Assembly (NCBI GenBank): GCA_044351455.1
Contig: JBILFS010000001.1
Span: forward strand, 1 to 32,533
Source: Paludibacter sp.
GTDB lineage: Bacteria > Bacteroidota > Bacteroidia > Bacteroidales > Paludibacteraceae
DNA length: 32,533 bases
Direction: 5' to 3'
The position numbers and the translations under genes are program-made. This document shows, piece by piece, positions 5,086 through 32,533 of the stretch (its first letter is position 1; every line of letters starts with the position of its first letter). The notes under the pieces are model-generated. The model had not been told where the DNA came from and made no database searches. It was given only the letters and a program-made list of their open reading frames with translations.

Positions 5086-5093
5086 TATATTTG
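5086..5093 (+). promoter_or_regulatory. Bacteroidetes sigma-A -7 element (TATATTTG) for the lipoprotein gene at 5119
   Basis: TAnnTTTG followed by C, 25 bp upstream of the ATG; divergent from the susC1 promoter. Confidence 0.65.
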
Positions 5094-5118
5094 CCGAAAA
5101 TATAAAAAATTAATAAAT

Positions 5119-6510: not shown

Positions 6511-6525
6511 GACTGAAAGCATATC

Positions 6526-6565
6526 AAAAAAAAACTGTCCCGGTATAATCAGGACAGTTTTTTTT
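6526..6565. terminator. Bidirectional rho-independent terminator
   Basis: A9-CTGTCC...GGACAG-T8 hairpin between convergent genes. Confidence 0.85.
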
Positions 6566-6581
6566 ATAATCAGATCATAAC

Positions 6582-7406
6582 TTATTTAGGAGTATAAACC
6601 TCTTCAATAACCCTGTTTCCATTTCCACCAACATAGTAGTAATTCAAATAGAACTTACCGGTTACAGGATCAAAATATGATCTTGCAGCAGAAGCAATAA
6701 TCTCAGTAGGAGTACCATTAGAATAAGAAACATTATTAGTTACAGGATCAACAGTAATATCAACAAAGTAACCAGCACCACCAAGGTCACCAACAGGTAT
6801 CTTACAAGAATACGCAGTCAGAGGCACTAAATATTTATCCTCATTAATTGGTCTCTGACCAGCAGTTGGATGAGTAAAAGTACCTGTACACAGATAATTA
6901 CCTGCATAAGCATTAGCAACACCAATATTGGTAGTTGAACCATTCTCTACTTTTCTGCTGTCAGCTGTCATTGTTGCAACATAAGTAATTGTCCAGCTCT
7001 CACCAATATTCAATAATGTTTCGTTAGCAGGAAGAGCTGCTCCGCCAACTGTCAGTCCTGAAATTAAAGAAGCATAGTTCACAGTTACATTACCTGCAAA
7101 TTCCGCTGAAGTGTTAGCACCCGCAACATTTAATTCTCCCAATTTAGCAATATTTGAAGTTTTTCCGGCAGAATTTGTAAACGACTTATAAAGTTCCACC
7201 TTTTCAATCGCAGGACCAACCGGAACCACAATATCAATTTTGATATTGGTTGTAGCACCTAATTTATAAGGCACATTAACTGTAACAGGAGTTACCAAAC
7301 CACCTGTTTTTACTTCTCCAGTCATTAAATCATCATTCTCCAAACAAGCTGTAAAAGAAAATGCGACAGAAACAATCAGGAAGATATTTAAAAATATTTT
7401 TTTCAT
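6582..7406 (-). CDS. SusCD-associated surface lipoprotein
   Basis: Lipobox FTAC followed by acidic LENDD (export-signal-like); third gene of the susC2-susD2 operon. Confidence 0.8.
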   Translation of the reverse strand: MKKIFLNIFLIVSVAFSFTACLENDDLMTGEVKTGGLVTPVTVNVPYKLGATTNIKIDIVVPVGPAIEKVELYKSFTNSAGKTSNIAKLGELNVAGANTSAEFAGNVTVNYASLISGLTVGGAALPANETLLNIGESWTITYVATMTADSRKVENGSTTNIGVANAYAGNYLCTGTFTHPTAGQRPINEDKYLVPLTAYSCKIPVGDLGGAGYFVDITVDPVTNNVSYSNGTPTEIIASAARSYFDPVTGKFYLNYYYVGGNGNRVIEEVYTPK

Positions 7407-7447
7407 ATCTGTATTTTTTTAATTATCAATTGAAATTTTACCGGAAA

Positions 7448-9004
7448 TTAATTTACATCCCACCAAACTTTGGTATTCATGTCGTCCTTACCACCGATTC
7501 TGGTCACAGCAGCTTCCACATTGGATTTATTTCTGGAATACTCATCCGATGGATAATAAACTCTTACCGGAATTTTCTTCTCATTATCAGCATCAACAGG
7601 TGCTACAAGAACAGGATAACCAATACGTCTCCATTCAAAATTTGCCTGTAGGCCCTGATCGAACAAAGCAACCCATTTCTGAGTTCCGATTTGTTCCATC
7701 GCTTTGGCTGCATCAAATTTCCATCCGCCATATTCTTTAAAATCCTCCAGTGCGTAAGTTATAATATCCTTTTCAGCTTCTTTCCATCCCCATTTAACAA
7801 AATCAGCACTCCAGATTTTTTTGAGTTCAGCAGCAAAGAATGTTGCATTTTGATTGTAAGAAGCTTCAATACCCTTATAATAATATTCTTCTGTCTTAGC
7901 CGCACCACCGGTGATATATGTTTTATGAGCTGCTTCAGCCAGGATAAACTGCAATTCAGCATAACTCATTAACATTCCGGGGGCAGTTGCCTGAGTATAG
8001 AAAGAGCTGATCTTAGATGTGTTTTTAAGTCCACCACCATCATAATTTGCAGCATCAGAAGATCTCAATCCATTAGGCAAACCAGCATAATCACCTTTAC
8101 CATCAGCTAAAGAAGCATACATTGAAACCCTGTAGTCAGGACTTGCCGCATCTTTATAAAGAAGATCGATAAGCTTTTTACTTACACGGTGGTCATCTCT
8201 GGTTTTGCGGTTTTCGTTAATCGGATTATTATTCGGAGCAGATCCCAAATAAACCAGTGCTGCATTATCTGCATTAGAAGTAAAGATCGGGTATTTTGCT
8301 GCATCTCCTACTATAGCTGCCATATCTGCTTTAACATCAACTTTAGCCGACATTCTGAGCAGCAATCTTAATCTTAATGAATTAGCAAACATCTTCCATT
8401 TTGCAACATCTCCATTGTAAAGAATATCACCTTCGATCTCTTCATTATCTTCAGAAAGCAAATCATTGGCTTCTTTTAGTTTAAGAACCAAATCTTTATA
8501 GATATCCTCCTGTTTGTCATAAGCGGGAGAGATAATCGGAGTAGCTGCTGAGCCCTGCCATGCTTCTGAATAAGGAATATCACCAAAAAGATCGGTAAGT
8601 ACAGAGGTAATATAAACCTTTAATACGAGGCCCACACCTTTGTAATTCTTCAAATCCTTAGCTTCAGCAATTTTAAGAATTGTAGATACATCCTGACCAG
8701 ACGCACCATATAAGCTAGTCCATGTATTATTAATTACAGAAACACGGGGAATATAACGATCTTCATCAGTATACTGAACCTTTGCCATGTGCTGTACCCA
8801 ACATGAACCCATTTCATGACCAAGAAATATTTCATGAACCCTGTCAGTCATTGATTCGATAGAGTTGGCAAGAAGCATTTTTGGGTCTGCCTGATCCAGC
8901 GAAGGTTTGTTGACATTGTTATTTATTTCTTCAAAATCTGTTGTACAGGCAGTAAATCCTGTAATCAAAACAGCAGTAAAAATATATTTAAAAACTTTTT
9001 TCAT
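7448..9004 (-). CDS. susD: SusD/RagB family lipoprotein (SusD-like_2 type)
   Basis: FTACTTDFEEINNNVN, LTDLFGDIPYSEA, WKMFANSLRLRLLLRMS, QKWVALF...EWRRIGYP and KVWWD. ATG at 9004 is preferred over GTG at 9010. Confidence 0.93.
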   Translation of the reverse strand: MKKVFKYIFTAVLITGFTACTTDFEEINNNVNKPSLDQADPKMLLANSIESMTDRVHEIFLGHEMGSCWVQHMAKVQYTDEDRYIPRVSVINNTWTSLYGASGQDVSTILKIAEAKDLKNYKGVGLVLKVYITSVLTDLFGDIPYSEAWQGSAATPIISPAYDKQEDIYKDLVLKLKEANDLLSEDNEEIEGDILYNGDVAKWKMFANSLRLRLLLRMSAKVDVKADMAAIVGDAAKYPIFTSNADNAALVYLGSAPNNNPINENRKTRDDHRVSKKLIDLLYKDAASPDYRVSMYASLADGKGDYAGLPNGLRSSDAANYDGGGLKNTSKISSFYTQATAPGMLMSYAELQFILAEAAHKTYITGGAAKTEEYYYKGIEASYNQNATFFAAELKKIWSADFVKWGWKEAEKDIITYALEDFKEYGGWKFDAAKAMEQIGTQKWVALFDQGLQANFEWRRIGYPVLVAPVDADNEKKIPVRVYYPSDEYSRNKSNVEAAVTRIGGKDDMNTKVWWDVN

Positions 9005-9016
9005 AACCACAATTTA

Positions 9017-12000
9017 TTAAAGTTTGCAACTAATACTTACACCTATACTTCGTGCTGAAGGAATCTGACCAAACTCAAGTCCTTGTACATTTGTATTACT
9101 AAATGCACTTTCGGGATCAATATGAGGAACTTTGGCATAAAGTAATGCAAGATTACGTCCGATTAACGAAATATTCAAATCTTTAATTGGTGTTTTTCCA
9201 ATTTTATTGAAAGTATAACCAATTTTCAATTCTCTGAGTTTTACAAAACTTGCATCATAAACACTTGAAGCTGCGACATCACTAACATAAGCAGCTTTAT
9301 TGAAGTTTTCAGCTTCAGCAACAACATCATTAGTCACATAAGAAACATTACCCTGAGCATCGACTACTTCTTTAACACCAACGCCAACGATACCGCCTTC
9401 ACGACCAATCAATGTTTCTTCGAGCACACCAGCATAGCGACCCCATGTTGAAGTCATAGAATACATTTCACCACCCATACGAGCATCAATAAGGAAACTC
9501 ATACTAAGATCTTTATAAGTGAATTCGTTATTGATACCACCAATCCAATCAGGAGTATAATTACCTAACACTTTTAAATCACCCTGTGATGGTAAACCAT
9601 TTCTATAGATAATCTGTCCGTCAGGAGCTCTTTCAAAGTCATAACCGTAAAGAGAACCATATTTCTGACCAGGAATTGCCATCACTTTCATACTCCAGTA
9701 TGTTCCAAGTTCGTATTGTTCGATACCTTCAGCAAGTTCAACAACTTTATTAACGTTTTTAGACCAGTTAACAGTAACATCCCAGTTCAAACCATTCTTT
9801 GATTTAAGCAGTGTTGCACCTAACAATACTTCCACACCACTATTATCAATTCTACCCGCATTTGTAACTTTAGTTGTAAACCCGCTTGATGCAGAAATTG
9901 GAACAGAAATAATCTGGTTAGTTGCACTTGAATTATAATAAGTTAAATCAAGTCTGATTTTATTATCCATAAATCTGAAATCACCACCAAATTCAAGAGA
10001 GCTTACAAACTGAGGTTTCAAATCAGCATTTGGCAATTCATTAGGGATGAACTGGTTCAATAATTTAGTACTTGCATTCCAACCATCACCAAAGGATACT
10101 GTTGGGAATAACTTATAAGGATCGGTATCGGCACCTACTTTAGCATAACTAACACGTAATTTACCGAAAGAAAGCACTGAAGGATCAAACTCAGTGATTT
10201 CAGTAATTACCCCACTTAACTGTACTGATGGATAGAAAAATGAATTATTTCCTGCAGGCAACGTACTTGACCAGTCATTTCTACCAGAGAAATCAAAGAA
10301 GAGCATTGACTTATATCCAACAGAGCCTGAAAAATACAAACTGTTAATTCTTTTTCTCCAGAGGAAATTATCAGCAACCTGTGGTACCAAAGAGTTTTTT
10401 ACATTATAAACACCTTCAACAGCCAACTCAGGAGCTTCAACAAAGTTATAAGTTCTGGAATAATCCATAGCATTACCACCGACACTTACGTTAACCTCAT
10501 AATCATCATATTTCTTAACTGCGGTTAGCAGGAAGTCAGTATTAGATTCTCTGTACAGGTCAACTTCTTCCATATAATAACCGTTAGGAAACTCCTGCAT
10601 GTTCATTGCACGGCGTGAAGTATTGAAATTTGAATAATAGTCGATACCAGTTCTGACAAAAGCGCTTAACCAGGAAGTAAACTGATATTTTGCCATTACA
10701 TTTCCGTAAAATCTGTCACGTTTGTTAGTGTTCAGATTTTCATATAATGTTGAATAAGGGTTATTATGATAGTTTGTGTTCCAGTTATACCATGAACCAT
10801 CAGCATTCTTATAATTTTTAAGTTCACTCAGATCAACCTGGCGACCAAACCAGTTAAACTGTTGCATTACGTTATCAGGATCGTAACCATAACCAGGCAT
10901 ATTGGGGCTATTGGTATGAACATATGAACCTGAAGCAGAGAAACTTAACTCTTTGGACAACTGAGAACTACCATTAAAACTGAAGATATTTTTCTCGATT
11001 TTTGTATTTTCTAACATACCTGTTTGCGATAAGTTAGTGAGCGAGGTCCTGAAAACAGTTTTATCAGTACTTCCCTGTAAAGCAACAGATGAAGTATTGG
11101 TAGTACCTGTAACAAAGAAATTTTTCACATTATCAGGATGCGATACCCATGGAGTTGCAGTACGAACACCATTTACAACAGGAGAATTAAACTGTGGGAT
11201 ATTAAGACCCACATCAAGTTTCGGACCCCAGCTTTCATCAGTACCATCATTAACACCATGACCGGCACCATCCACATACTCAAATAAACCTCCTGAACCC
11301 TGACCATAAGAATTTTGGAAATCAGGTAATCTGAATGGATTTTCAAATGTAGTAGAATGACTTAATTCAACACCAAGTCCTTTTTGGCCCTTTCCGGATT
11401 TTGTTGTAACAACAATTACCCCGTTAGAAGCTCTTGATCCATAAAGAGCAGCAGCATTCGGACCTTTTAAAACAGAAATTGATTCAATATTTTCAGGGTT
11501 GATATCCTGAACTCCACTACCACGGTTAACACCTTCAGTTGCAGTTCCACCAAAGTTCGAGTTCGCCATAGGAATACCGTCAACAACGAAAAGTGGTTGA
11601 TTATTACCATCCAGAGAGTTAACACCACGAAGAATGATTCTTGCAGAAGCACCAACAGCTCCGGAACTACTGGTAATCTGTGCACCTGAGATTTTACCCT
11701 GAAGCGAGTTTACGACATTCACTTCTTTAGCTTTAGAAATCTCATCACCTTTTACGTCCTGCACCGAATAACCGAGTGCTTTCTTTTCTCTACTGATACC
11801 AAGAGCAGTTACAACAACTTCATCAATCAAAAGCGCATCAGATTCCAGCCTTACGACTAAATTGTTTTTCGCTTCGACTTCCATTGTTTTCATACCCACA
11901 TAGGAAATCACTAATACTCCTGATGAAGGAACATTAATAACAAATTCTCCCTGACCGCCGGTAATTGTTCCGGTGGTGGTACCCTTAACTTTTACTGATG

Positions 12001-12124
12001 CTCCAATCACAGGAAATCCATCATCCGCGGAAATTACTTTCCCGGAAACTGACCTTGACTGAGCATTAAGGAATGTAAAGCTTACCATCAACAGGAAAGC
12101 TAAAAAGACCGTTAGTTTTCTCAT
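9017..12124 (-). CDS. susC: SusC/RagA family TonB-dependent outer membrane transporter
   Basis: VVVTALGISREKKALGYSVQ, NQPLFVVDG and DINPENIESISVLKGPNAAALYGSRASNGVIVVTTK. Confidence 0.96.
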   Translation of the reverse strand: MRKLTVFLAFLLMVSFTFLNAQSRSVSGKVISADDGFPVIGASVKVKGTTTGTITGGQGEFVINVPSSGVLVISYVGMKTMEVEAKNNLVVRLESDALLIDEVVVTALGISREKKALGYSVQDVKGDEISKAKEVNVVNSLQGKISGAQITSSSGAVGASARIILRGVNSLDGNNQPLFVVDGIPMANSNFGGTATEGVNRGSGVQDINPENIESISVLKGPNAAALYGSRASNGVIVVTTKSGKGQKGLGVELSHSTTFENPFRLPDFQNSYGQGSGGLFEYVDGAGHGVNDGTDESWGPKLDVGLNIPQFNSPVVNGVRTATPWVSHPDNVKNFFVTGTTNTSSVALQGSTDKTVFRTSLTNLSQTGMLENTKIEKNIFSFNGSSQLSKELSFSASGSYVHTNSPNMPGYGYDPDNVMQQFNWFGRQVDLSELKNYKNADGSWYNWNTNYHNNPYSTLYENLNTNKRDRFYGNVMAKYQFTSWLSAFVRTGIDYYSNFNTSRRAMNMQEFPNGYYMEEVDLYRESNTDFLLTAVKKYDDYEVNVSVGGNAMDYSRTYNFVEAPELAVEGVYNVKNSLVPQVADNFLWRKRINSLYFSGSVGYKSMLFFDFSGRNDWSSTLPAGNNSFFYPSVQLSGVITEITEFDPSVLSFGKLRVSYAKVGADTDPYKLFPTVSFGDGWNASTKLLNQFIPNELPNADLKPQFVSSLEFGGDFRFMDNKIRLDLTYYNSSATNQIISVPISASSGFTTKVTNAGRIDNSGVEVLLGATLLKSKNGLNWDVTVNWSKNVNKVVELAEGIEQYELGTYWSMKVMAIPGQKYGSLYGYDFERAPDGQIIYRNGLPSQGDLKVLGNYTPDWIGGINNEFTYKDLSMSFLIDARMGGEMYSMTSTWGRYAGVLEETLIGREGGIVGVGVKEVVDAQGNVSYVTNDVVAEAENFNKAAYVSDVAASSVYDASFVKLRELKIGYTFNKIGKTPIKDLNISLIGRNLALLYAKVPHIDPESAFSNTNVQGLEFGQIPSARSIGVSISCKL

Positions 12125-19913: not shown

Positions 19914-21021
19914 TCAGCCTTCAAACTCCATCAGGTATGCTTTGATGAATGCGTCAATATCGCCATCCATCACAGCATTCACGTTGGATGTTTGAAAATT
20001 GGTTCTGTGGTCTTTGACTCTTCTGTCGTCGAACACATAACTTCTTATCTGAGAGCCCCATTCAATTTTCCTTTTTCCGGCTTCCACTTTGGCAGTTTCG
20101 GCACGCCGTTTCTCAAGTTCGAGTTCGTACAATTGCGATTTAAGCAATCGGAGGGCATTGTCTTTGTTGCCAAATTGCGAACGGCTTTCCGTATTTTCTA
20201 TGATAATTTCGTCGGGAGCATTGGTTACAGGATTGGTGAATTTATAATGCAGACGAACACCTGTTTCCACTTTATTTACATTCTGACCACCGGCACCGCC
20301 CGAACGGAAAGTATCCCAGCTTAAACTACCGGGATTAATTTCGATATCGATGGTATCATCGACCAAAGGAACCACAAAAACAGAGGTAAAGGAAGTCATG
20401 CGTTTACCCTGTGCATTGAATGGCGAAACACGCACCAACCGGTGCACACCATTCTCCGATTTCAGATAACCATAAGCCATTTCACCTTCAATCTGCATGG
20501 TAACTGTTTTAACACCAGCCTCATCACCATCCTGATAATTCGTAATTTCGCATTTATAACTCTGTCTTTCTGCCCAGCGTTGATACATCCTGAAAAGCAT
20601 TTGTGCCCAATCCTGAGCCTCGGTACCACCGGCACCAGCCACAATTTTTATCACGGCGCCTAACTTATCCTCTTCTTTGGAAAGCATATTCTTCATCTCC
20701 AAAGTTTCCACAAGTTCCATTGAATGCTGATAAGCCAGATCGACCTCTTCCTCTGTAACCGCTTCTTCTTTATAAAAATCGAAAGCCAGTTGCAATTCTT
20801 CCAGAGAAGCCCTGATAGCCTGATAGCCTTCCACCCACTTTTTCAGTTCCTTCACCTTCTTCATCTGGACTTCAGCCGCTTTGGCATCATCCCAGAAACC
20901 GGGTGCCTGCGTACGAATTTCTTCTTCTTCTATTTGTATTAATTTAGTATCGACGTCAAAGATACCTCCTCAGCGCGTCCCCGCGCTCCAACACGTCTTT
21001 GAGTTGGTCTGCTGTAATCAT
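19914..21021 (-). CDS. prfB: Peptide chain release factor 2, translated via a +1 programmed ribosomal frameshift (about 368 aa)
   Basis: SPF and GGQ motifs. The 21-codon first frame MITADQLKDVLERGDALRRYL ends in CTT TGA, and the +1 frame (DVDTKLIQIEEEEIRTQAPGFWDD) is in frame with ORF 19914-20864. Confidence 0.97.
20955..20970 (-). promoter_or_regulatory. prfB frameshift cassette AGGAGG-TAT-CTT-TGA-C
   Basis: Internal Shine-Dalgarno sequence 3 nt before the slippery CTT TGA C. Confidence 0.97.
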
Positions 21022-21057
21022 TTAATTTAATTTATTTAGTTAAACATAATATAATAT

Positions 21058-21206
21058 TTGAACCACATAAGTCACATAAGTCACATAAGTTTTTTTTGTA
21101 ATAATATAACCTGAATGATAGTTAATTAATTCCTGACATTTATATATTGATGTGATTCCGATAGCGGAATATTACTTATGTTACTTATGTGACTAATGTG
21201 GTTAAA
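21058..21206. repeat. Dispersed inverted-repeat element, copy 1 (MITE/REPIN-like)
   Basis: TTGAAC(CACATAAGT)x3, an 83 bp spacer, then ACTTATGTT ACTTATGTG ACTAATGTG GTTAAA; arms 30/33 complementary. Confidence 0.9.
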
Positions 21207-21211
21207 TGTAT

Positions 21212-21850
21212 TCACCCAATTTCCGGGAATTTAATAATCTGTTCCGACACCAGAATTCCTGCAATAAATACAGTCAGGAAACCCACCGTAAATCCGGCCA
21301 GTGTTTGTCCCGGCGTATGTGCTTTCAGTTCTATCCTCGAAAAAGCGGTGAGTGCCGAAATAAAAAGCATGGCAATCATGGCAAAAACCGGATTTACCCC
21401 CATGATGAAGCTATAAGCAAAAACACCACCGGTTAAACCGCCCACGCCCGACAAATGCGCACTGATTTTCCATTTCAGATTGATAATGGTAATAATTATT
21501 ATCGATAAGATGGACCCTATACCCATGGCAACAAAGAAATGCGGCAAATGCAGGATTCTCCATAAAAAGATGGTCCAGAACACATACGCAATGATTGAAA
21601 ACATATATGGGAAAGTACGTTGTTCCTTTTTAGAGATGTACAAATCCTTGATCTGACCATTTTTCAGCATCAGCAAAATCGGCATGGCCGGCAACAGCGC
21701 AGTAAAAAGGAAAGTGCCGCCAATCGCAAACCATTTCCAAACCGGCATAAAGAAATTTGCCAAATCTGTAAAAAGAAAAACGATGATTCCATAAGTTGGC
21801 ATCAACAGCGGTTGAAAAACGAAAGAAACTGCTTTATGAAATTTTTTCAT
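21212..21850 (-). CDS. Multi-pass membrane protein (PAP2-superfamily-like, commonly downstream of rpoN in Bacteroidales)
   Basis: Several hydrophobic segments; WKISAH and SRIELKAHTPGQ motifs. The ATG at 21850 is preferred. Confidence 0.8.
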   Translation of the reverse strand: MKKFHKAVSFVFQPLLMPTYGIIVFLFTDLANFFMPVWKWFAIGGTFLFTALLPAMPILLMLKNGQIKDLYISKKEQRTFPYMFSIIAYVFWTIFLWRILHLPHFFVAMGIGSILSIIIITIINLKWKISAHLSGVGGLTGGVFAYSFIMGVNPVFAMIAMLFISALTAFSRIELKAHTPGQTLAGFTVGFLTVFIAGILVSEQIIKFPEIG

Positions 21851-21863
21851 ATTATACTTATTA

Positions 21864-23309
21864 TTACAACTCCTTCCGGAGGCGGGCAACCGGAATATTC
21901 AGCTGTTCCCTGTATTTGGCCACCGTACGGCGGGCGATATTATAACCTTTGGTTTTTAACACATCAGCAAGCGCATCATCATTCAAAGGCTTTCTTTTAT
22001 TCTCACTTTCAATGCAATCCTGCAATATCTTTTTTATTTCTCTTGTTGACACCTCTTCTCCCGAATCATTAGTCATCGATTCGGAAAAGAAATATTTCAC
22101 CGCATACACCCCGAATTCGGTCTGAATATATTTACTATTACTAACCCTGGAAATCGTTGAAATATCATAGCCGGTAATATCCGCAATATCTTTCAGAATC
22201 ATCGGTCGGAGGAAAGTATCATCCCCTTCAATAAAAAACTTATACTGAAACCCCACAATCGCCTTCATGGTAGTCAGCAGCGTATGATGTCTTTGTTTGA
22301 TGGCATCGATAAACCAACGCGCAGCATCAATCTTTTGTTTTGCAAAAGTTACAGCATCCTTCATTGCATTGGTTTTCTCCCCTTTTCTTTCAGAATATGT
22401 CTGAAATAATTCGTTATAAGTATTGCTCACCCGCAATTCCGGAACATTTGAATTATTCAGGTGAACAATCAGTTTTCCCTCATCATTTTCCAGATAGAAA
22501 TCGGGAATCACCACCGACATTGATTTTTCAAGCAGGTTGCCACCCCAGGCATTACCGGGTTTAGGATTCAATCTGGAAATTTCCGTAATAGCATCCTTCA
22601 GTTGATCGTCAGTCAAACTCAGGTTTTTTTTGATACGATCGTAATGTTTTTTGATAAACTCATCAAAATAATCTTCGATGATGCAAAGCGCACTACTCAC
22701 TTCCGGTCGATAAATCTTCCTCTCGAGCTGCAATTTAAGGCATTCCTGCAAATCAGTAGCAGCTACTCCGGCAGGTTCAAATTCCTGAATGAGTGCAACC
22801 ATTTTTTGCATTTCATCATCCGTAGTATTGACTCCGGCATTAAAAACGATATCATCCACCATCGATTCAACCGTACGACGCAAATAACCATCTTCATCAA
22901 TATTGCCAATTACATACTCGGCTAATTGTCGCTCTTTTTCCGAAATATTCTGTAACCCAAGTTGTTCAACTAAATGTTCATGAAAAGTAGTTCCGATTGA
23001 AAACGGAATATCCTCTTTTTTATCATCCGGAGAATTATTATTTACTTTCAGTTTATAATCAGGAATATCGTCATCCATCATATACTCATCCAGATCCATA
23101 TCATCGTTGTTTCCACCATCATCATTTAAATCATCCGAATCAGCTTCATCATTTTTATCTGCACCCTCTTCAAGTGCAGGGTTTTCCTCCAGCTCCTGTC
23201 TGATTCTTTCTTCCAGTTCAAGTGTAGGCACCTCAAGCATCTTTATCACCTGAATTTGAGCAGGTGACAATTTCTGTTGTAGTTTTTGTTCTAAAGATTG
23301 CCTTAACAT
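21864..23309 (-). CDS. rpoN: RNA polymerase sigma-54 factor
   Basis: Q/L-rich region I, HTH DISTISRV and RpoN box ARRTVAKYRE. Confidence 0.97.
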   Translation of the reverse strand: MLRQSLEQKLQQKLSPAQIQVIKMLEVPTLELEERIRQELEENPALEEGADKNDEADSDDLNDDGGNNDDMDLDEYMMDDDIPDYKLKVNNNSPDDKKEDIPFSIGTTFHEHLVEQLGLQNISEKERQLAEYVIGNIDEDGYLRRTVESMVDDIVFNAGVNTTDDEMQKMVALIQEFEPAGVAATDLQECLKLQLERKIYRPEVSSALCIIEDYFDEFIKKHYDRIKKNLSLTDDQLKDAITEISRLNPKPGNAWGGNLLEKSMSVVIPDFYLENDEGKLIVHLNNSNVPELRVSNTYNELFQTYSERKGEKTNAMKDAVTFAKQKIDAARWFIDAIKQRHHTLLTTMKAIVGFQYKFFIEGDDTFLRPMILKDIADITGYDISTISRVSNSKYIQTEFGVYAVKYFFSESMTNDSGEEVSTREIKKILQDCIESENKRKPLNDDALADVLKTKGYNIARRTVAKYREQLNIPVARLRKEL

Positions 23310-23339
23310 GAATAATTTATATAAACCGGTTTACAGGTG

Positions 23340-23347
23340 CAAAGTTA
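23340..23347 (-). promoter_or_regulatory. -7 element (TAACTTTG) for rpoN
   Basis: TAnnTTTGC 30 bp upstream of the ATG. Confidence 0.65.
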
Positions 23348-23387
23348 ATTAAATTAGCTAAAATTACCGAACACTTAGCAACATATC

Positions 23388-24239
23388 TCATTTTAATTTT
23401 TTCTTTTTTATTGATAATCCGATATCGATGCGACCCAGGAACAACCCGCTTTTGGCCATTTGAGCAATGATTACCGGCTTTCCATCCATATTCAGAGTTT
23501 TTACATTTTCGAGCATCGAATGCGAATGTCCTCCGATAATAACATCGATATTCCGGGTTTGTTTGGCCAAACTAAAATCATTGAGTTTTACTTCTGTGGA
23601 ATCTGAACCAAGATGCGACATGCAAATCACCACATCACATTTCTTTTTATTTTTAAGAATACCGGCCATTTCCTGTGCCTTTGACACAGGCTCCAGATAT
23701 TTTACACCTTTGTAATTCCGTTCCATGATCAATCCCTCAGGATTCACACCCAGGCCAAATATTCCGATTTTAATATCCCCTTTACGGATGATATGATATG
23801 GTTTTATCAATCCATGAATGACCGATTCTTTCACATCATAATTAGACACCACAACAGGAAATTCAGCCATTTTCAGCAACATGGCTAAAGAGTCGATGCC
23901 ATTGTCAAATTCATGATTTCCAAGATTAACAGCATCGTACTTCATCAGATTATAACCATTAATTTCGACCCTGCCACCATAAAAATTGTAGTAGGGAGTA
24001 CCTTGTGAAAAATCACCGGCATCAATCAAAACCACATTGGGCTCCTGATTTCTGATTTGTGTGATAAGTTCATAACGCCGTGCATAACCACCCATTTCAG
24101 GATTTCTGGCTGCGTTTTTCTCTGTAGGTTCAATCTGACTATGCGTGTCGTTGGTATGCAAAATAACAATTTTGTTGTTTTGCCCTGATAACGAAAGCAG
24201 TGTCAGTAGAAAAAACGAAAGCAATATAATTCTTGTCAT
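23388..24239 (-). CDS. 5'-nucleotidase, metallophosphoesterase (N-terminal domain) subunit
   Basis: LHTNDTHS, DAGDFSQG, GNHEFD, SHLG and GGHSH. Confidence 0.93.
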   Translation of the reverse strand: MTRIILLSFFLLTLLSLSGQNNKIVILHTNDTHSQIEPTEKNAARNPEMGGYARRYELITQIRNQEPNVVLIDAGDFSQGTPYYNFYGGRVEINGYNLMKYDAVNLGNHEFDNGIDSLAMLLKMAEFPVVVSNYDVKESVIHGLIKPYHIIRKGDIKIGIFGLGVNPEGLIMERNYKGVKYLEPVSKAQEMAGILKNKKKCDVVICMSHLGSDSTEVKLNDFSLAKQTRNIDVIIGGHSHSMLENVKTLNMDGKPVIIAQMAKSGLFLGRIDIGLSIKKKKLK

Positions 24240-24243
24240 AATA

Positions 24244-24987
24244 TTATTTTTGTGTTATTCTGCCATCAATTTTTGATTCCACCTTTTTACCTTCAGACGT
24301 AGCCTTTTTGATATAAAATGTTAACATATCTCTCACTTTGATACCTGTTTGAACAGCAGATTCTTGTAACCTGAGTTCAGGCATATTATCATTACCTTCT
24401 GAAAGATAATTATTGGTAGCAATAAAATAAACTTTTTCAGGATTAAGTTTTTCCCCTCCGATGTTGATATCAACTGCTTTTCCGTTGTAAATGATAAAAT
24501 TCATCCCTGAAATACCTTCACCTCCTGCTAAAGCCATGCGATGAAAAAGCGGAATCAAATTACTCCCTTTAACACCAATTATCACAAGTTCATTCTCAAA
24601 AGGCATCAGTTCATACATTTTCCGGATGGTTACATTGCCGGCAGGTATGGTTGTTCTGAGTCCCCCCAGATTTACAATAGCAATATCAACCGGTTTTTTC
24701 AGGAAATCTGTTGCTGTTTCCCTGTAAATATCCGCACAATAATTCGAAAGCAAACTTTCAGGTGCATGTCCCCGCATTGTAGCAGGTGCATATCCTATTA
24801 CCTCATTCATCGTTACGTCGAGGGCAGATTTATATGGTTGAATCATATTCACAACAGGATTATCCTGTTGGACAGACACAGAATTATCAACCGGAATTCT
24901 TATACCCTTCATTCCTGTAATGGAATAATGAATTCCCGAACAGGAAATCAGAAAGAGTAACACAGAAAATGTCAGTATTTTATTCAT
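24244..24987 (-). CDS. 5'-nucleotidase C-terminal domain lipoprotein subunit
   Basis: Lipobox LISC, NLGGLR, LMPFENEL and ATNNYLSEGND; split UshA architecture typical of Bacteroidetes. Confidence 0.9.
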   Translation of the reverse strand: MNKILTFSVLLFLISCSGIHYSITGMKGIRIPVDNSVSVQQDNPVVNMIQPYKSALDVTMNEVIGYAPATMRGHAPESLLSNYCADIYRETATDFLKKPVDIAIVNLGGLRTTIPAGNVTIRKMYELMPFENELVIIGVKGSNLIPLFHRMALAGGEGISGMNFIIYNGKAVDINIGGEKLNPEKVYFIATNNYLSEGNDNMPELRLQESAVQTGIKVRDMLTFYIKKATSEGKKVESKIDGRITQK

Positions 24988-25171
24988 TGTAAATAAATTA
25001 TTAAAATTGCATCATGCACTTATGCGAAAATACAAAAATAATTGAATATGCCAATGATTGATTGATTACATTCAAAAATAATTTACGTCTGCATAATACA
25101 TTTGCTATAATTTTTTGTTATTTAATTGATTTTAACATAGATTGAAATTAATAACCATGACAACAAATGAC

Positions 25172-25179
25172 TATATTTG
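25172..25179 (+). promoter_or_regulatory. -7 element (TATATTTG) for the FISUMP-CotH gene
   Basis: TAnnTTTGC 50 bp upstream of the TTG start. Confidence 0.55.
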
Positions 25180-25229
25180 CGGTGGAAAAATGATTACATA
25201 AATAAATCATTTCAAAAAATAAAAAAACT

Positions 25230-27725
25230 TTGAAATCAACATACTCATTTATAATTATTCTGATATCGCTGAATATATTTCACATCTATGCCACTGAATA
25301 TCAAATTAGTTTCATAGGAAGTGGAGCAGCCGTAACAATTGACAGTATTCAGGTTACCAACCTCAGAAGCGGTCAGCATATTACATTGACAAACAATCAG
25401 TCTCTTCTATTAAGAAGTGATGAAAGTGGCTTTCCCAGCCTTCCTGAGACCAATAATAATTTGCTCATCCATCCAAATCCCTGTTATGGAAAGGCGACGA
25501 TGAGTTTTCAGAATGCCAAAAAAGGCACCTGCCTTGCATCTGTGTATAATATCGATGGAAGGTTGCTAAACGCTTATGTATTTCAGGCTGAGACAGGTAC
25601 ACATCAACTGGAACTTAATCTCCCTCAGGGTATATTCTTTGTAAAAATTTCAGGCAATGGACTGTTGCTTAGATCAAAAATCATCAGCACAAACACCGGA
25701 AATATTGTTAGCGAATTGAAATATGTTGGATTTGAGGCACGAGAGAAGGCGAAGGAACAGGTACAGGCACAGGCACAGGAGCAGGACATGTTTTTTCTAT
25801 CTGGCGACAGGTTTCTCTACAAGGTTTATTCTGGTCATTTTTGCACAATACTTCCCCACAAACCGGTTGCTTCGGAAGATATCAACATCGATTTTTATGC
25901 TTGTACCGATGCTTCAGGAAATCATTATCCGGTTTTAATATTGGGCAATCAGGTATGGATGGCTGAAAATCTGAAAACGACACATTTCAGAAATAACGAC
26001 ATCATATCCAGCATAAACACAAATGTCGGATGGAAAAGTAACTTGTTACCAGCATGGTGTAGTTATAACAATCTTGATAATGCTCAGACAGGCTTACTCT
26101 ACAACTGGCAGGCAGTAAACGACAACAGAATCATTGCACCTGAAGGTTGGCATGTACCAACCAATGATGCCTGGTCAGAATTAAACAATTTTCTGACTAA
26201 CAACCAATTAACATTTGACGAAAATTCTGGTTTTATAAATCTGAAAAGCGGTTACCGTAATGACACAGGAGTTTTTGAGCAATCCGGGAATATGTCAGTC
26301 TTTTGGACAGCTAACTCTACTGATGGCAGCAACAGTTATAGCAGAAACATAAATGCCGGAAACAACTTGCTTTCCGCAGAAAAAAAACTTCATTCTAATG
26401 GATTCTCTGTTCGATGTATCCGGCCAGTTTATACAGCAACGCAGGCTTCGTTCAAAACATTTGACATCAATAGATTACCTGAAATAATGCTGGAAGTGTC
26501 CCCTGATGAGTGGAATAAAATACTGACATATTACGACATGAATCCTCATAATGAAGAAAAAGTATTGGTTAGTTTTACATTCAAAGATGATGGTTTGATT
26601 ACAGTTTTGAAACAAACCGGATTAAAATTACGTGGTAATACCAGCCGACGTCGCCCGGAAGGGAGTAAAAATATTCTGCACAGTAGCTCAAATCCGGACT
26701 GGCATCATGCAAGTTTTTCGGTTGATATGAATGAATTTGTGAGCGGACAAAAATTTGCCGGTTTGAAGAAGTTAAATCTGAAGTGGTTTAAGGACGACTC
26801 TATGTATGCTCGGGAAGTATATTGCTACGATTTATTCAAACGATTTGGCGTATGGACAGCCCCGGAATCTTCCTATTGTAAGTTTTATATTTACATCACT
26901 GGTGACCCGAAACCTGCTTATTTTGGGATTTACGAAATGCTTGAATCAATTGACAGTGATTATCTGAAAAAAAGAAAAAATCAGTTTGGAGACGACAATG
27001 GATTTCTATGGAAAGCTTTCTGGGGAGCGGATTTCAAAACGGCGGATGCTTCCAAAATGGGTATTGAACTTGTAACACTAACGAGCACCTACAAACCTGT
27101 TTATGATTTAAAAAACAGGGAATTGGAACTTCAAACAGCCAAAACACAATTATTGCAATTCATTACCGACCTGAATCAGAAAACCGGCACCGACTTCGAA
27201 ACCTGGATTGAATCAAAAACCGATGTTCCGTTATTTCTCAAAACATACGCAGTGAATGTTATGTGCGGGATGTGGGACGATTACTGGGCTAACAAAAACA
27301 ATTTTTATTTCTATTTTAATTCCTCCGGAAAGTTCTTTTTCATCCCCTATGATTATGATAATACCCTGGGCACATCTTATATCATGAGTAATTCAGGCAC
27401 ACAAAATCTGCTAAAATGGGGCAATAGCTCCCATCCACTTATAGAAAAAATCATTGCCATACCCAAATATAAAAGCATGTATATCAATTACTTGCACGAA
27501 TTATGCAATCCTCAGTCAGACCTATTCTATGTTTCCAAAAGCAAAGTACGGATACTAAACTGGCACAATCTCATCAGGGCATATATCAGCAATGAAACCG
27601 GAGAAGATATGGAAATTGTCGATCGACCTGCCTCGTGGGGAAATTGTAGTTTTTACCGACTTATGGAAGACCAAAATAATTATTTTCAGATTAGAGCAAA
27701 TAATTTGCCTGCAAAAATTAATTAA
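25230..27725 (+). CDS. Secreted fusion protein: T9SS-CTD-like domain + Fibrobacter succinogenes major (FISUMP) domain + CotH kinase domain
   Basis: Signal peptide; IHPNP...VYNIDGR...LPQGIFFVKI; GNQVWMAENLK, GLLYNW, PEGWHVP and GFSVRCI; LRGNTSR, DDYWANKNNFY and IPYDYDNTLG. Confidence 0.85.
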   Translation: MKSTYSFIIILISLNIFHIYATEYQISFIGSGAAVTIDSIQVTNLRSGQHITLTNNQSLLLRSDESGFPSLPETNNNLLIHPNPCYGKATMSFQNAKKGTCLASVYNIDGRLLNAYVFQAETGTHQLELNLPQGIFFVKISGNGLLLRSKIISTNTGNIVSELKYVGFEAREKAKEQVQAQAQEQDMFFLSGDRFLYKVYSGHFCTILPHKPVASEDINIDFYACTDASGNHYPVLILGNQVWMAENLKTTHFRNNDIISSINTNVGWKSNLLPAWCSYNNLDNAQTGLLYNWQAVNDNRIIAPEGWHVPTNDAWSELNNFLTNNQLTFDENSGFINLKSGYRNDTGVFEQSGNMSVFWTANSTDGSNSYSRNINAGNNLLSAEKKLHSNGFSVRCIRPVYTATQASFKTFDINRLPEIMLEVSPDEWNKILTYYDMNPHNEEKVLVSFTFKDDGLITVLKQTGLKLRGNTSRRRPEGSKNILHSSSNPDWHHASFSVDMNEFVSGQKFAGLKKLNLKWFKDDSMYAREVYCYDLFKRFGVWTAPESSYCKFYIYITGDPKPAYFGIYEMLESIDSDYLKKRKNQFGDDNGFLWKAFWGADFKTADASKMGIELVTLTSTYKPVYDLKNRELELQTAKTQLLQFITDLNQKTGTDFETWIESKTDVPLFLKTYAVNVMCGMWDDYWANKNNFYFYFNSSGKFFFIPYDYDNTLGTSYIMSNSGTQNLLKWGNSSHPLIEKIIAIPKYKSMYINYLHELCNPQSDLFYVSKSKVRILNWHNLIRAYISNETGEDMEIVDRPASWGNCSFYRLMEDQNNYFQIRANNLPAKIN

Positions 27726-27938
27726 TCAATCTTAAATCACAACTTCACCTCCACATATTTCACACTTTGCCTTCTTCAGTTATATACCGCATGAATGCGT
27801 CAGTCTCTTCCCTGAATGATTACTAAAAAAAACGATGTATCTTTGCATGTCTGTGTAATTATATGATTAAAGACGTAAAAATTGTGTTTTTGTAATTATT
27901 TAAACATTATTAATCTCGAATGGTTATAAAATAACATT

Positions 27939-27946
27939 TATCTTTG
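27939..27946 (+). promoter_or_regulatory. -7 element (TATCTTTG) for ybaN-maeB; a second match lies at 27838-27845
   Basis: TAnnTTTG 16 bp upstream of the ATG. Confidence 0.5.
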
Positions 27947-27962
27947 AAGAAAATTTGAACAA

Positions 27963-28358
27963 ATGCAATTATTAAAAATTTTATGGGTGATTCTGGGTAC
28001 CATATCCCTGGTTATAGGCCTGATCGGCATTGTAATTCCGGGATTACCCACCACCCCGTTTTTACTTTTAACAGCAGCACTTTACATCAGAAGTTCAGAA
28101 AAATTATACAAAGCACTCATCTCAAACAAACATCTCGGAAAATACATCCTGGATTTCAGGGAAGGGAAAGGACTTCCGCTGAAGACCAAAATCATTTCCC
28201 TGATCATGATGTGGACCATGATTACCCTGTCCTGTTCCTTTTTTATTGATATCCTCTGGTTAAGATTAGGCATCATCATACTGGGAATCATTGGTTCAGT
28301 AGTCATGTTTTTCATTTTACCAACGTCAGAAAATAAATCGGAAGATAATCATCAGTAA
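27963..28358 (+). CDS. ybaN: YbaN/DUF454 family inner membrane protein
   Basis: GIVIPGLPTTPFLLL...RSS motif. Confidence 0.88.
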   Translation: MQLLKILWVILGTISLVIGLIGIVIPGLPTTPFLLLTAALYIRSSEKLYKALISNKHLGKYILDFREGKGLPLKTKIISLIMMWTMITLSCSFFIDILWLRLGIIILGIIGSVVMFFILPTSENKSEDNHQ

Positions 28359-28378
28359 TCGTTTAATAACATCCAGAT

Positions 28379-30673
28379 ATGAAAAAAATCACCCGCGAAG
28401 ATGCATTGAAGTATCATGCACAGGGAAAACCCGGAAAAATTGAGGTAACACCCACAAAACCACACAGTTCACAACGCGATTTATCGCTGGCTTATTCTCC
28501 GGGTGTGGCGGAGCCTTGTCTTGAAATTGCAAAAGATCCGGGACTGGTTTACGATTATACCTCCAAGGGCAATCTGGTTGCCGTTATTTCAAACGGTACG
28601 GCGGTTCTCGGTTTGGGCGATATCGGTCCATTGGCCGGTAAACCGGTGATGGAAGGTAAAGGTCTGCTTTTCAAAATTTTCGCAGGAATTGATGTTTTTG
28701 ATATTGAAATCAACGAAAAAGATCCGGAGAAATTCGTTCAGATCGTCAAAGCCATTTCACCTACTTTCGGAGGTATCAATCTGGAAGATATTAAAGCACC
28801 GGAATGTTTCGAGATTGAAGAGCGACTCAAAGCTGAACTTGACATCCCTTTGATGCACGACGACCAGCATGGTACTGCCATCATTTCAGCAGCGGGGTTA
28901 ATTAACGCACTGGAATTGGTTGATAAAAAGATAGAAGAGGTACGCATCGTGATCAATGGTGCCGGAGCAGCTGCTAATTCCTGTGCACAGTTGTATCTGA
29001 TGCTGGGAGCACGACTTGAAAACCTGGTAATGGTTGATTCGAAAGGTGTAATATCAAAGAAACGCACCGATCTTAACAACCGAAAGATACCTTTTGCAAC
29101 CAGCAGAGAAATAACCACTCTGACAGAAGCAGTGAAAGACTCAGATGTTTTCATCGGATTATCAATAGCCGGATTATTATCCATCGAGATGGTGCGATCA
29201 ATGAATGTAAATCCAATCGTATTTGCACTTGCCAATCCAAATCCGGAAATTTCCTATGATGATGCCATGGCAGCAAGGAAAGACATCATTTTTGCCACCG
29301 GTCGGTCCGACCATCCGAATCAAATCAATAATGTATTGGGATTTCCTTATATTTTTCGCGGGGCGCTTGATGTGAGGGCAACCTGCATCAACGAAGCCAT
29401 GAAAGTAGCAGCAGTTCGAGCCCTGGCCGATCTGACCAAAAAACCCGTTCCGGATGTGGTTAATGCTGCCTACGAACTGAAAAAACTCAGTTTTGGCAGT
29501 GAATATATTATACCGAAACCATTAGATCCGCGCCTGCTTACCGTTGTGGCACCAGCGGTAGCCAAAGCCGCTATAGAATCCGGAATTGCGCGTAAAATCA
29601 TTACCGACTGGGATGCCTACGATTTAAAACTCAGGGAAATCATGGGAAGTGATAATAAGTTGATTCGCAGGTTTTATGAAATGGCACGACAAAATCCAAA
29701 AAGGGTTGTCTTCTCCGAATCTATCCATGTAAATATGATAAAAGCGGCTGAAGTAGCCTTGCAGGAAGGATTATGTCAACCCATATTGCTTGGGAATGAA
29801 GAAAAAATTGCCAGTATTGCAGCAGAAAATGACATTGATTTAACCGGTATTGAAATCATTAATCTCCGACACGACAGAGAAGAAGCCCGTCGTGCCAGAT
29901 TTGCCCGTATCCTCTCAGAAAAACGAAGTCGCGAGGGCATGACCTATGAAGAAGCATTTGAAAAAATGTACGAGCGCAATTATTTCGGCATGATGCTGGT
30001 TGAAACAGGCGAAGCAGATGCGCTGATAACAGGCGTTTATACCAAATATGCCGATTCAGTTCAGGCAGCAATCGATGTTATCGGCATCCGGAAAAACACC
30101 AGATATATGGCAGCCATGCACATCATGATTACCAAAAAAGGCACTTTCTTCCTGGCCGATACCCTGTTCAACAGGCACCCCAACACAGAAGCATTGGTCG
30201 ACATTGCCCGGTTAACACACGACACAGTACGATTTTTTGCCCATGAACCTGTGATGGCCATGCTTTCCTACTCCAATTTCGGCTCCGACAGAAGTGGTAG
30301 TCCGGCCAGTGTACATCAGGTGGTGGATATCCTGCACAAACAACATCCCGAAATGATGGTTGACGGTGAAATGCAGGTTACCTTCGCCATGAATAAAGCC
30401 CTGCGCGACAAGAAATTCCCATTCTCAAAAATTGCAGGGAAAGATGTGAACACCCTGATATTCCCCAACCTCAGTTCTGCCAACACTGCTTATAAAATGC
30501 TGATAGAAATGGGATTAGCTGAAACAATTGGTCCGATACAAATGGGACTTAACAAACCGGTACATATTCTTGATGTAGAAAGTTCTGTGCGCGATATTGT
30601 GAACATGACGGCCGTGGCTGTACTGGATGCGATTGTGCTGGAGCGGGTGAATGCGTACAAGGCGAAGAGTTAA
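28379..30673 (+). CDS. maeB: NADP-dependent malic enzyme with C-terminal phosphotransacetylase-like domain
   Basis: [47 protein letters not shown] and [10 protein letters not shown]. Confidence 0.96.
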
Positions 30674-30677
30674 AATT

Positions 30678-31580
30678 TCAGATTTCTATCTCCCCCAGCG
30701 CCTCTTCAATCTTTTTCCGGTGTTCCTCATCAAATTTATTGAAAGGTGCTGCCAGGAAATCGTTGCAGATGCCCAGAATATTGAGCGCACATTTTACGCC
30801 TTTCAGGTAGCTTGAACCGTAATTACCTACCGTGTAGATGGTTGCGCTTATCTGCATCACTTTGGCATGCAAGGCTCTGACTTTGACCAGATCGCCTGCA
30901 AAAGCTGCATTGTATAGTTCAACATACAGTTTCGGGAACATGTTCGCTCCACCGTTCACACCTCCGTGGGCTCCCATCAGCACCGATTCGGCCATCATTT
31001 CTTCGGGTCCCACAAACAGTGAGAATTCGGGTCGGTCGCGAAAAGCATGCATCACCGACTGAAAATAGGCGCCACTCGCCGAACTATCCTTGAAGCCAAT
31101 TACCTTCGGATTTTCGGCAATCCTGCGAATGGTTTGCGGCGCAAAAGATACCTTCGTATGGGTGGGCATGTTGTAAAGAAAAACAGGTAGCGACAACTGC
31201 GGAATGAGGTGCTCGTAAAACTCAGCAAGTTCGGGTTGTCCGGTGGCAAAATAATACGGTGGTGCTGAAACAACCGCATCTGCACCCTGATCTTTGGCTA
31301 AACCGGCCAAAGCCACGCTGTCAACCAAAGATGTATCAGAAATACCCACCAATAGCGGCAATCTGTTTTTCAGCAACTTAGCCGTCTGTTTTATCATCTC
31401 GTAACGCAACTCAAAACTCAGACTCTGCGCTTCTCCGGTTGTGCCCAGGATGAAAATTCCGTGCACACCACCGGCAATCACATGTTCAATCAATCGCTCC
31501 AAACCTGCAATATCCAGCGAATTATTGTCGTTGAGCGGCGTAACCAATGGAGGCACTATCCCCCTTAAAACTTTTTCCAT
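30678..31580 (-). CDS. Dihydrodipicolinate synthase/N-acetylneuraminate lyase family protein (likely sugar-acid aldolase/dehydratase)
   Basis: GTTGE, LYNMP and Schiff-base lysine GFKDSS; follows a glycosidase gene. Confidence 0.88.
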   Translation of the reverse strand: MEKVLRGIVPPLVTPLNDNNSLDIAGLERLIEHVIAGGVHGIFILGTTGEAQSLSFELRYEMIKQTAKLLKNRLPLLVGISDTSLVDSVALAGLAKDQGADAVVSAPPYYFATGQPELAEFYEHLIPQLSLPVFLYNMPTHTKVSFAPQTIRRIAENPKVIGFKDSSASGAYFQSVMHAFRDRPEFSLFVGPEEMMAESVLMGAHGGVNGGANMFPKLYVELYNAAFAGDLVKVRALHAKVMQISATIYTVGNYGSSYLKGVKCALNILGICNDFLAAPFNKFDEEHRKKIEEALGEIEI

Positions 31581-31597
31581 TTTAATATAATTTTAAT

Positions 31598-31773
31598 TTT
31601 AACCACATAAGACACATAAGTCACATAAGTTTTGAACTTAAACCCTTTGAAACTATTTTAACAAAATTAAATTTCACTTCGACATTATTTATATCACTAA
31701 ACCTGAAAACTAATCACATTTTATACTTACCGTACAAAAAACTTATGTGACTTATGTGTCTTATGTGGTTCAA
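31598..31773. repeat. Dispersed inverted-repeat element, copy 2 (MITE/REPIN-like)
   Basis: TTTAAC CACATAAGA CACATAAGT CACATAAGT TTT ... AAA ACTTATGTG ACTTATGTG TCTTATGTG GTTCAA; arms 35/36 complementary. Confidence 0.92.
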
Positions 31774-31779
31774 TATTTA

Positions 31780-32533
31780 TTACATTTTCCTCAGCCGCAG
31801 ATGCAATTCCTTCACCCCCGGCATAATCGTATATTTCTTCAAAACACCCGGTCCGCAACTGCTGTTTCCCAGTCCCATCACGGCAGCATCAATATTCAGG
31901 ATTACTTCCGGACGGGCCACTAATTCGTCATGATGGGTAGCCCTATACAAATCCTGCGTGGTAAAATGCATGGCAGAAGCAGAGAACGGTTTACTTAATG
32001 ATTCAATCTGAACACCTTTCCCCTTTGCGTTTGTCAGCCTGATGATCTGCACATTTTCCCTGTTGCCGGTATCCTGTGGACGCGGATAAGGCACAGTTTG
32101 CTCACTTACGGTCGAATTCCACCAACCTGTATAAGCAGATTGTATCCGGTCGGGATAATTCTCATGCGGACCAGCTCCGTAATAGCTGAAATTACTAAAA
32201 TCGCTATTGAATGCCATTGAAACACCCATCCGGGGTAAATCAGGCAATTTTCCTTCCGGCAAGAAAGAAATTTTCACATCCATCACTCCGGATGAAAAAA
32301 CACAATATTCCAGGGATGTTAGGATGCTTCCGTTTAGAAAACGACTCGTTTTACTTGTTTTCAAAATCAATGCCCCATCACTTCTGAAATGATATTGAAG
32401 TGGTTCGGCAACAATATTGATGGTATCAAGCAGGTTCGATTTCCAGTCTTTCGCCAGCCAGTTACCAAATCCCTTATCGTTGTCGGTTGGCGCCCTGAAA
32501 AATTGTGGAAGCGGACAAACACCTGCTGTTGCG
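31780..32533 (-). CDS. GH2 beta-galactosidase, C-terminal (small chain) domain; 5'-truncated by the window edge
   Basis: The frame is open to the window end and contains FRAPTDND, LPRMG, YYGAGPHENYPDR, YPRPQDTGNR and GLGNSSCGP. Confidence 0.9.
   Translation of the reverse strand, partial: ATAGVCPLPQFFRAPTDNDKGFGNWLAKDWKSNLLDTINIVAEPLQYHFRSDGALILKTSKTSRFLNGSILTSLEYCVFSSGVMDVKISFLPEGKLPDLPRMGVSMAFNSDFSNFSYYGAGPHENYPDRIQSAYTGWWNSTVSEQTVPYPRPQDTGNRENVQIIRLTNAKGKGVQIESLSKPFSASAMHFTTQDLYRATHHDELVARPEVILNIDAAVMGLGNSSCGPGVLKKYTIMPGVKELHLRLRKM

Follow-up and report, generated by a model that had tools for sequence, protein, structure and literature searches.

Dispersed inverted-repeat doublets in a Paludibacter genome and their candidate partner, a predicted GxxExxY nuclease

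The stretch of DNA analysed here (32,533 nucleotides (nt); hereafter the window) is contig C247 of a Paludibacter sp. assembly (G000; 2.49 Mb, 77% complete) and carries two copies of an intergenic inverted-repeat element in which two inward-facing arms enclose a spacer. The copies and the genes on either side of them are:

19914..21021, minus strand: prfB (release factor 2), with its ATG at 21021, 37 nt away from copy 1
21058..21090, plus strand: left arm of copy 1, tip (AAC at 21061) and three 9-nt units
21091..21173: spacer of copy 1, 83 nt, AT-rich, seen in both orientations in natural samples
21174..21206, minus strand: right arm of copy 1, three mismatches to the left arm, longest exact match 12 nt
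21212..21889, minus strand: open reading frame (ORF) of 225 amino acids without Pfam or NCBIfam match, its stop 5 nt off copy 1
30678..31580, minus strand: gene of the dihydrodipicolinate synthase (DHDPS) family, its start 17 nt off copy 2
31598..31633, plus strand: left arm of copy 2
31634..31737: spacer of copy 2, 104 nt, without relation to that of copy 1
31738..31773, minus strand: right arm of copy 2, of which 33 nt are exactly complementary to the left arm
31780..32532, minus strand: 3' part of a beta-galactosidase gene (small-chain domain), its stop 6 nt off copy 2

Every arm of both copies consists of the tip AAC followed by three inward-facing CACATAAG(T/A)-type units, as an earlier note on this DNA, made from its letters alone, had described. 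The 33-nt arms of copy 1 are 91% complementary with 83 nt between them, and the 36-nt arms of copy 2 are 97% complementary with 104 nt between them (110 nt if 33-nt arms are taken). The arms lack a self-complementary core, and their tandem direct 9-mers pair only with the opposite arm. The observation of the same note that the two spacers cannot be aligned was borne out (score 8, z -0.2), as was the statement that neither a transposase nor a clear target-site duplication is present: a scan of the 22 window proteins found no transposase or recombinase families, and the sequence holds neither a direct repeat flanking copy 1 or copy 2 nor any coding capacity inside them. A target-site duplication is not visible at the two copies, and the species with empty sites, being only ~80% identical, are too distant to fix the junction. 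Each copy is flanked by minus-strand genes that run in the same direction; in the sense of transcription, a stop codon precedes it by 5-6 nt and the next start follows it after 37 nt (copy 1) or 17 nt (copy 2).

The two copies belong to a dispersed family, as the note had supposed, and this family is far larger than the two loci from which it was first described, so that the finding which the note would have taken as a refutation, two copies and no more, did not come about. Under strict patterns, the genome holds 72 arms of three types with a common AACCA tip, namely 30 of the 9-mer type found in the window, 34 of a 10-mer type and eight of an 8-mer type. Since three order-4 Markov simulations of the genome gave 0, 3 and 0 arms of all types, with none of the 9-mer type, and since the 9-mer pattern has 13 matches versus none for the reversed pattern, the family cannot be ascribed to chance. 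The arms form 28 inward-facing doublets (12 of the 9-mer, 14 of the 10-mer and two of the 8-mer type) that measure 72-259 nt from tip to tip and sit directly behind stop codons; outward-facing doublets were not found, and none of the 28 lies within an ORF. The commonest 16-mers of the genome come from the arms, which are more alike within a doublet than between doublets (52 and 0 of 20000 permutations), and no match to an arm was found in viral contigs.

The spacers mostly do not appear to fold by themselves (median z of self-folding -0.64, with five of 26 below -2), and those of the window have no match among 369 compared loci beyond the genome's own. Nor are the spacers shown to be remnants of genes, for comparison with one another, with the genome and with ~110 GxxExxY genes gave nothing convincing. 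A repeat of the GTCATTC..GAGCGAAGCGAAG type (four copies under a strict pattern) is nested in two spacers (C143:10599-10733 and C340:4651-4769), and in two relatives (G062 and G070) a 170-nt insert lies inside a spacer of a sister 9-mer type. In another relative (G064; loci L313 and L318), the spacers of three adjacent doublets are 53, 53 and 54 nt long but unrelated to one another, and spacer length may thus be constrained while the sequence is free.

The earlier note had named a link between such arms and small GxxExxY genes, and this was borne out. G000 contains two genes of this family (PF13366/TIGR04256, PD-(D/E)xK), and both are located inside AACCAC-tipped arms of types other than that of the window copies:

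C338:1017-1424: GxxExxY gene within 8-mer arms
C25:987-580: GxxExxY gene between galK and galM, within 10-mer arms

In the relative G090, a GxxExxY gene of 138 amino acids lies between galK and galM within two-unit arms of the window type that match the first two units of the window. The proposal of the note that the copies are gene-less members of a family whose enzyme gene lies between the same arms elsewhere is supported; in G000 itself, no GxxExxY gene with the 9-mer arms was found in the 77% of the genome at hand. A sister 9-mer type frames the galK-galM gene in G062, G064, G070 and G077, and a gene is kept at this site in at least 15 genomes. The start codon of the C338 gene abuts the last arm unit, and the tip overlaps the stop codon of the upstream gene (L002:989-1019).

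GxxExxY genes are present in 88 of the 102 genomes of the genus and in 70 of 121 genomes sampled from the phylum. We took 112 loci, comprising the two own genes, 109 of 335 other matches in the genus (the 30 best, 19 from arm-rich genomes and 60 from lower in the list) and one gene-less arm pair; 109 loci had enough flank for comparison. Inverted similarity between the flanks reached a score of at least 20 at 65 of these 109 loci, as against one of 28 and none of 27 control genes, and 86 of the 109 outscored 20 shuffles each. Among the 30 best loci of the phylum, 18 scored at least 20 and 28 beat their shuffles, whereas outer windows gave 0/30. The arm type also follows the protein: over the 71 loci with a score of at least 18, reduced to one locus per site (n=33), arm type tracks the protein tree with a rho of 0.55 (0/2000 permutations), although the compared genomes are kin rather than independent and kinship inflates these figures. 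At different sites, ~85% of the 46 pairs with more than 75% protein identity share arms compared with 0-2% of the 1519 pairs below 45%, and at the same site none of 30 pairs with a protein identity below 65% do so.

GxxExxY genes were the only genes found between the arms, which speaks against a MITE (a miniature transposable element with inverted repeats) with a DDE transposase as partner. An intron- or intein-borne homing gene was likewise rejected, as the GxxExxY genes are intergenic and the two gene loci of G000 (L001 and L002) have no Rfam match, and so was an ORF-bearing intervening sequence of 23S rRNA, whose cargo is a PF05635 gene, given that the elements lie between protein genes. 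Both PF05635 four-helix-bundle genes of G000 (C294:1390-1800 and C134:1280-1720) lie between tandem heptamer arms that face inward and belong to two further types, a parallel design of gene plus arms.

The residues E30, D70, E80, K82 and Y98 are invariant in 103 of 103 GxxExxY proteins. With D70, E80 and K82 invariant and the fold as predicted, the PD-(D/E)xK catalytic residues are intact, and the gene has 0.09 nonsynonymous versus 1.9 synonymous substitutions per site (dN/dS ~0.05). The predicted structure (pLDDT 96.7) has a restriction-endonuclease-like fold with Cas4 and Hjc as the closest matches (Foldseek E 3e-3 to 5e-3, best 3.4e-3) and resembles other PD-(D/E)xK domains with Z up to 8.4; by sequence, the protein has no match in the Protein Data Bank, and its one match in viral contigs, of 16 residues, was given no weight. 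In the literature, the function of PF13366 is given as 'Unknown' (PMC3424549).

Comparison with relatives, as proposed in the note, shows that neither window copy has a counterpart at the orthologous sites. At the site of copy 1, the element is absent in all 26 relatives with both neighbours (three of 29 loci lack the upstream gene), and the gap between the genes is at most 46 nt in 11 relatives versus 190 nt in G000. At the site of copy 2, it is absent in all 22 syntenic relatives (seven of 29 loci are not syntenic or are cut), with a gap of at most 51 nt in seven relatives versus 199 nt in G000. The 9-mer core is patchy, with any match in 50 of 102 genomes of the genus; a long three-unit pattern found nothing in 40 relatives, while shorter patterns did recover the family in the genus.

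That members spread among sites, another supposition of the note, can be seen in close relatives. In regions of six genomes (G060, G062, G064, G070, G078 and G018) that were chosen for having arms, 47 doublets fall on 25 sites, and one spacer is common to 15 doublets at 10 of 22 sites (the clustering of doublet sites having merged two adjacent ones). Since the outer flanks of these doublets differ while the spacer is the same, whole doublets have been copied. Arm types are swapped at orthologous sites, four or more of which hold a 10-mer doublet in one species and a sister 9-mer doublet in another. Gene cassettes, too, are exchanged in place: between G060 and G064, galK is 94.8% and galM 98.4% identical, but the gene between them only 64.2%. 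The G064 gene is in turn 99.3% identical to that of G062 and 98.0% to that of G070, as compared with 83-91% outside the gene and 83-86% for galK and galM of G064 versus G070. The switch is bounded by galK -28 and galM +60, with the letters beyond the tips identical in both genomes, and four of nine other genomes have a short empty galK-galM site. In seven of seven genomes, the commoner arm type is the one predicted by the type of the resident gene: the ratio of sister 9-mer to 10-mer arms is 1.4-4.2 where the sister gene is present (four genomes) and 0.18-0.95 where the 10-mer gene is (three genomes). Hypermutation of the spacers is not supported, for in relatives orthologous spacers resemble one another as much as their flanks do.

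The gaps orthologous to copies 1 and 2 (L114-L172) and the galK-galM gaps (L288-L296) hold, depending on the species, nothing or one of at least five unrelated repeat types, among them CCCGGG palindromes, CCCC..GGGG stems, tandem heptamers and CTGTCAGG palindromes. Such intergenic sites look like hotspots that are contested by several repeat systems.

Neither this in-place swapping nor an inverted form of the copy 1 spacer was foreseen by the earlier note. The stretch is contained in contigs of 21 lake or freshwater metagenome runs, seven of which were examined; no RNA dataset containing it was found. In four of the seven (X4, X5, X7 and X9), the reversed spacer is joined to unique flank: a contig of X9 runs from 20982 to 21073 and then from 21181 down to 21123, one of X7 passes from the reversed spacer to 21183 onward, and one of X4 covers both inversion junctions. 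The reference orientation was found in X2, X4 and X5, with X4 and X5 thus holding both, and X1 and X3 gave no call. Judged by coordinates, the inverted allele has two units per arm versus three, and its spacer differs by four substitutions and two small insertions; both substitutions that all four runs cover are present in each of them. An assembly artefact was rejected: no exact match between the copy 1 arms exceeds 12 letters, so that a 31-letter graph cannot fake the join, unique flank is part of both junctions, and all four runs show these same substitutions. As a single crossover would keep six units and not four, the inversion would be an older one-off event that segregates between strains, and as the inverted form is always one fixed haplotype, it does not represent a phase switch. 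Spacers are also inverted between species, namely between G077 and G062/G064/G070 (scores of 30.5-38 versus 9, shuffle maximum 14) and between G070 and G078 (27 versus 6.5), while the orientation is unchanged at eight other orthologous sites. The inversion at copy 1 is direct evidence of rearrangement within one population. Around copy 2, contigs (31767-32229 and 30397-31640) differ from the window by 1-4%, which is above most of the stretch and suggests a diverged haplotype there.

From our point of view, the two window copies are gene-less members of a dispersed element whose gene-bearing form frames a small GxxExxY gene, which encodes a predicted PD-(D/E)xK nuclease that likely spreads copies in trans; we put the probability of this reading at roughly 65%. 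The system would then likely be REPIN-like, a REPIN being a doublet of REP sequences (repetitive extragenic palindromes), but with a PD-(D/E)xK nuclease as its driver in place of a REP-associated tyrosine transposase (RAYT), with the window copies as non-autonomous members. The predicted nuclease would recognise its own arm type, several subunits may bind the units of 8-11 nt, and a nick or cut would be set near the conserved tips. The PD-(D/E)xK fold normally hydrolyses DNA without rejoining it, and hence host repair, by strand invasion and template switching between arms, would perform the copying, the overwriting, the homogenisation of arms and the occasional inversion of a spacer. The 9-mer copies of G000 are probably orphans, either of the galK-galM gene, which now has 10-mer arms, or of a cognate gene in the unassembled part of the genome. 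A more general proposal, which we hold only tentatively and at somewhat less than even odds, is that GxxExxY genes and tandem-unit arms make up a class of bacterial mobile DNA run by a lone PD-(D/E)xK nuclease, in which each enzyme variant would have its own code of 8-11 nt and cut at the tips, elements would be copied, inverted or overwritten by host repair, and rival pairs of enzyme and arms would replace each other at shared sites between genes across a genome.

Several results weigh against this account. The genome of the window copies itself lacks a gene with their arms, as stated above, and its spacers are unrelated save for one of 325 pairs (26 spacers), which is related via a nested repeat, so that recent whole-element copying is not shown in G000. 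Elsewhere, of 97 genomes that lack a close homologue of the 10-mer-type gene, 15 carry at least five 10-mer arms, one of them being the 99% complete G062 with 22 arms and no matching gene; G076 and G115 have 51 and 20 sister 9-mer arms with no matching gene found. Loci picked by arm pattern showed no GxxExxY gene in the flanks retrieved (0/9 and 0/38), 23 of the 109 GxxExxY loci failed to beat their shuffles, and kinship, as noted, inflates the agreement of arms and protein. The galK region is a recombination mosaic, and ordinary homologous exchange can therefore explain the cassette swap. The matches of the modelled fold are generic and fix the superfamily only. Finally, excised or empty forms, which the note had suggested looking for, did not appear: the contigs of the seven runs contain no joint that skips the whole element, joints of the 'skips 80-94' kind having been left uncounted as their sides of 18-30 letters fit other arm copies.

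It could be imagined that the GxxExxY protein binds or resolves the arms without mobilising them, as a domesticated keeper such as a hairpin or cruciform cutter, and that the origin and turnover of doublets stem from template switching, slippage, ordinary interspecies recombination or another enzyme. Template switching is described, in the accessible text of one report, as an enzyme-free route to both inversion and arm homogenisation (PMC8604942), and the inversion consequently shows rearrangement at the arms and not its agent. The greater likeness of arms within doublets, the persistence of the gene at galK-galM, the Hjc resolvases among the top fold matches and the mosaic flanks would all suit such a keeper. 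It is nonetheless an unlikely explanation to us, as template switching cannot put one whole doublet at 10 unrelated sites, as a Y1/RAYT gene (PF01797) was not found in the 77%-complete genome, and as neither the agreement of arms with protein across sites nor the gene's prediction of the commoner arm type would be accounted for.

Host regulation is a less probable alternative still, in which the elements would serve as RNA stems that process or stabilise operon transcripts, or as operator arrays bound by a DNA-binding protein of the host, and the nuclease gene would merely carry the same element. The position just behind stop codons, the predicted RNA stems of the two copies (-44 and -64 kcal/mol) and the 18 of 24 copies between co-directional genes fit this idea, but the last share does not exceed the background (304/519, p 0.14), the sense strand has no G-U bias (8 versus 7), the elements have no Rfam match, neighbouring genes have no function in common, and every syntenic relative has either nothing or unrelated repeats at these sites. 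Very improbable, in our opinion, are phase-variable switches that a site-specific recombinase would flip. The copy 1 spacer does occur in either orientation, with X4 and X5 having both, and two further inversions separate species; yet in all four runs the inverted form shows identical substitutions together with arms that are shorter by one unit, which ties orientation to haplotype, and orientation is constant at the eight other orthologous sites. The motif TAnnTTTG, which we take to be the Bacteroidota -7 box, is absent from the copy 1 spacer and not in excess over all spacers (7 versus 4.5), and with no recombinase in the window, the two integrases of the genome lie on contigs devoid of arms.

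Apart from the repeats, positions 1-12124 of the window contain two SusC/SusD pairs, which point to Bacteroidota, and two ORFs without family (1223-1546, minus strand; 5119-6510, plus strand), and 25230-27725 (plus strand) encodes a protein of 831 amino acids that combines Fib_succ_major and CotH kinase domains with a sorting domain of the type IX secretion system kind, which is located near the N-terminus. Within prfB, positions 20955-20970 (minus strand) read AGGAGG, three letters and then CTT TGA C, the classic +1 frameshift signal of this gene.

Short intergenic segments that occur in two orientations between inverted repeats are known from Bacteroidota as invertons, and bacterial MITEs such as Correia and RUP are likewise short, gene-less, intergenic and patchy among species, with terminal inverted repeats. 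The present elements differ from the former in an orientation that is fixed per haplotype, in that no link to a promoter motif or recombinase was seen and in being a mobile repeat family, and from the latter in that neither a target duplication nor a DDE partner was found and the interiors within G000 are unrelated. The closest parallel, as far as the accessible parts of the respective papers extend, is the REPIN-RAYT system (REPtrons), which also comprises many extragenic inverted doublets of several types per genome, with variable spacers and one enzyme gene per type that is framed by its own co-varying repeats (PMC3116915, PMC3337134, PMC6006769). In contrast to what those parts describe, the arms here are tandem direct units of 8-11 nt behind a fixed tip instead of palindromic REPs, the partner is a PD-(D/E)xK nuclease of 125-138 amino acids (PF13366/TIGR04256) instead of an HUH/Y1 transposase, the spacers mostly do not appear to fold and cassettes are exchanged between species. 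TIRtrons, in the accessible portion of their description, likewise have an enzyme gene between terminal inverted repeats that are not REPs and that are also dispersed as dimers, but their TIRYTs are tyrosine (HUH) transposases and not restriction-endonuclease-like nucleases (PMC3733652). I-Ssp6803I, again judging from part of the source, is a small PD-(D/E)xK enzyme with an Hjc-related fold that spreads its own gene via host repair by in-place conversion of a locus (PMC3384342), whereas here an intergenic cassette with presumed recognition sites and dozens of gene-less repeats is found, without intron or intein. The in-place conversion seen here would be compatible with cutting of an allele that lacks the element, as a homing endonuclease does.

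We found no published description of a partnership between GxxExxY/PF13366 and such arms, in a search that was thin on subscription papers and excluded supplements, among which those of PMC3733652 and PMC6006769 contain repeat lists and may be relevant to novelty, and the nuclease-repeat system is apparently undescribed. It offers a testable role for a widespread protein family whose function is given as 'Unknown' (PMC3424549). If the account given here is true, REPIN-like repeat populations have arisen twice, the second time with an enzyme whose normal activity is limited to cutting DNA, and this would bear on how REPIN-like repeats copy themselves and why hosts keep the enzyme. The matched pairs of enzyme and arms (8-mer, 9-mer and 10-mer) permit a direct comparison of cognate and non-cognate combinations, and a nuclease of 125-138 amino acids would make an interesting small DNA-binding module if its recognition code changes along with its sequence. 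With the inversion that segregates at copy 1, a natural locus is at hand on which the mechanism can be read and, should the more general proposal of a class run by a lone nuclease hold, the inverted copy 1 allele would be a trace left by its activity within one living population.

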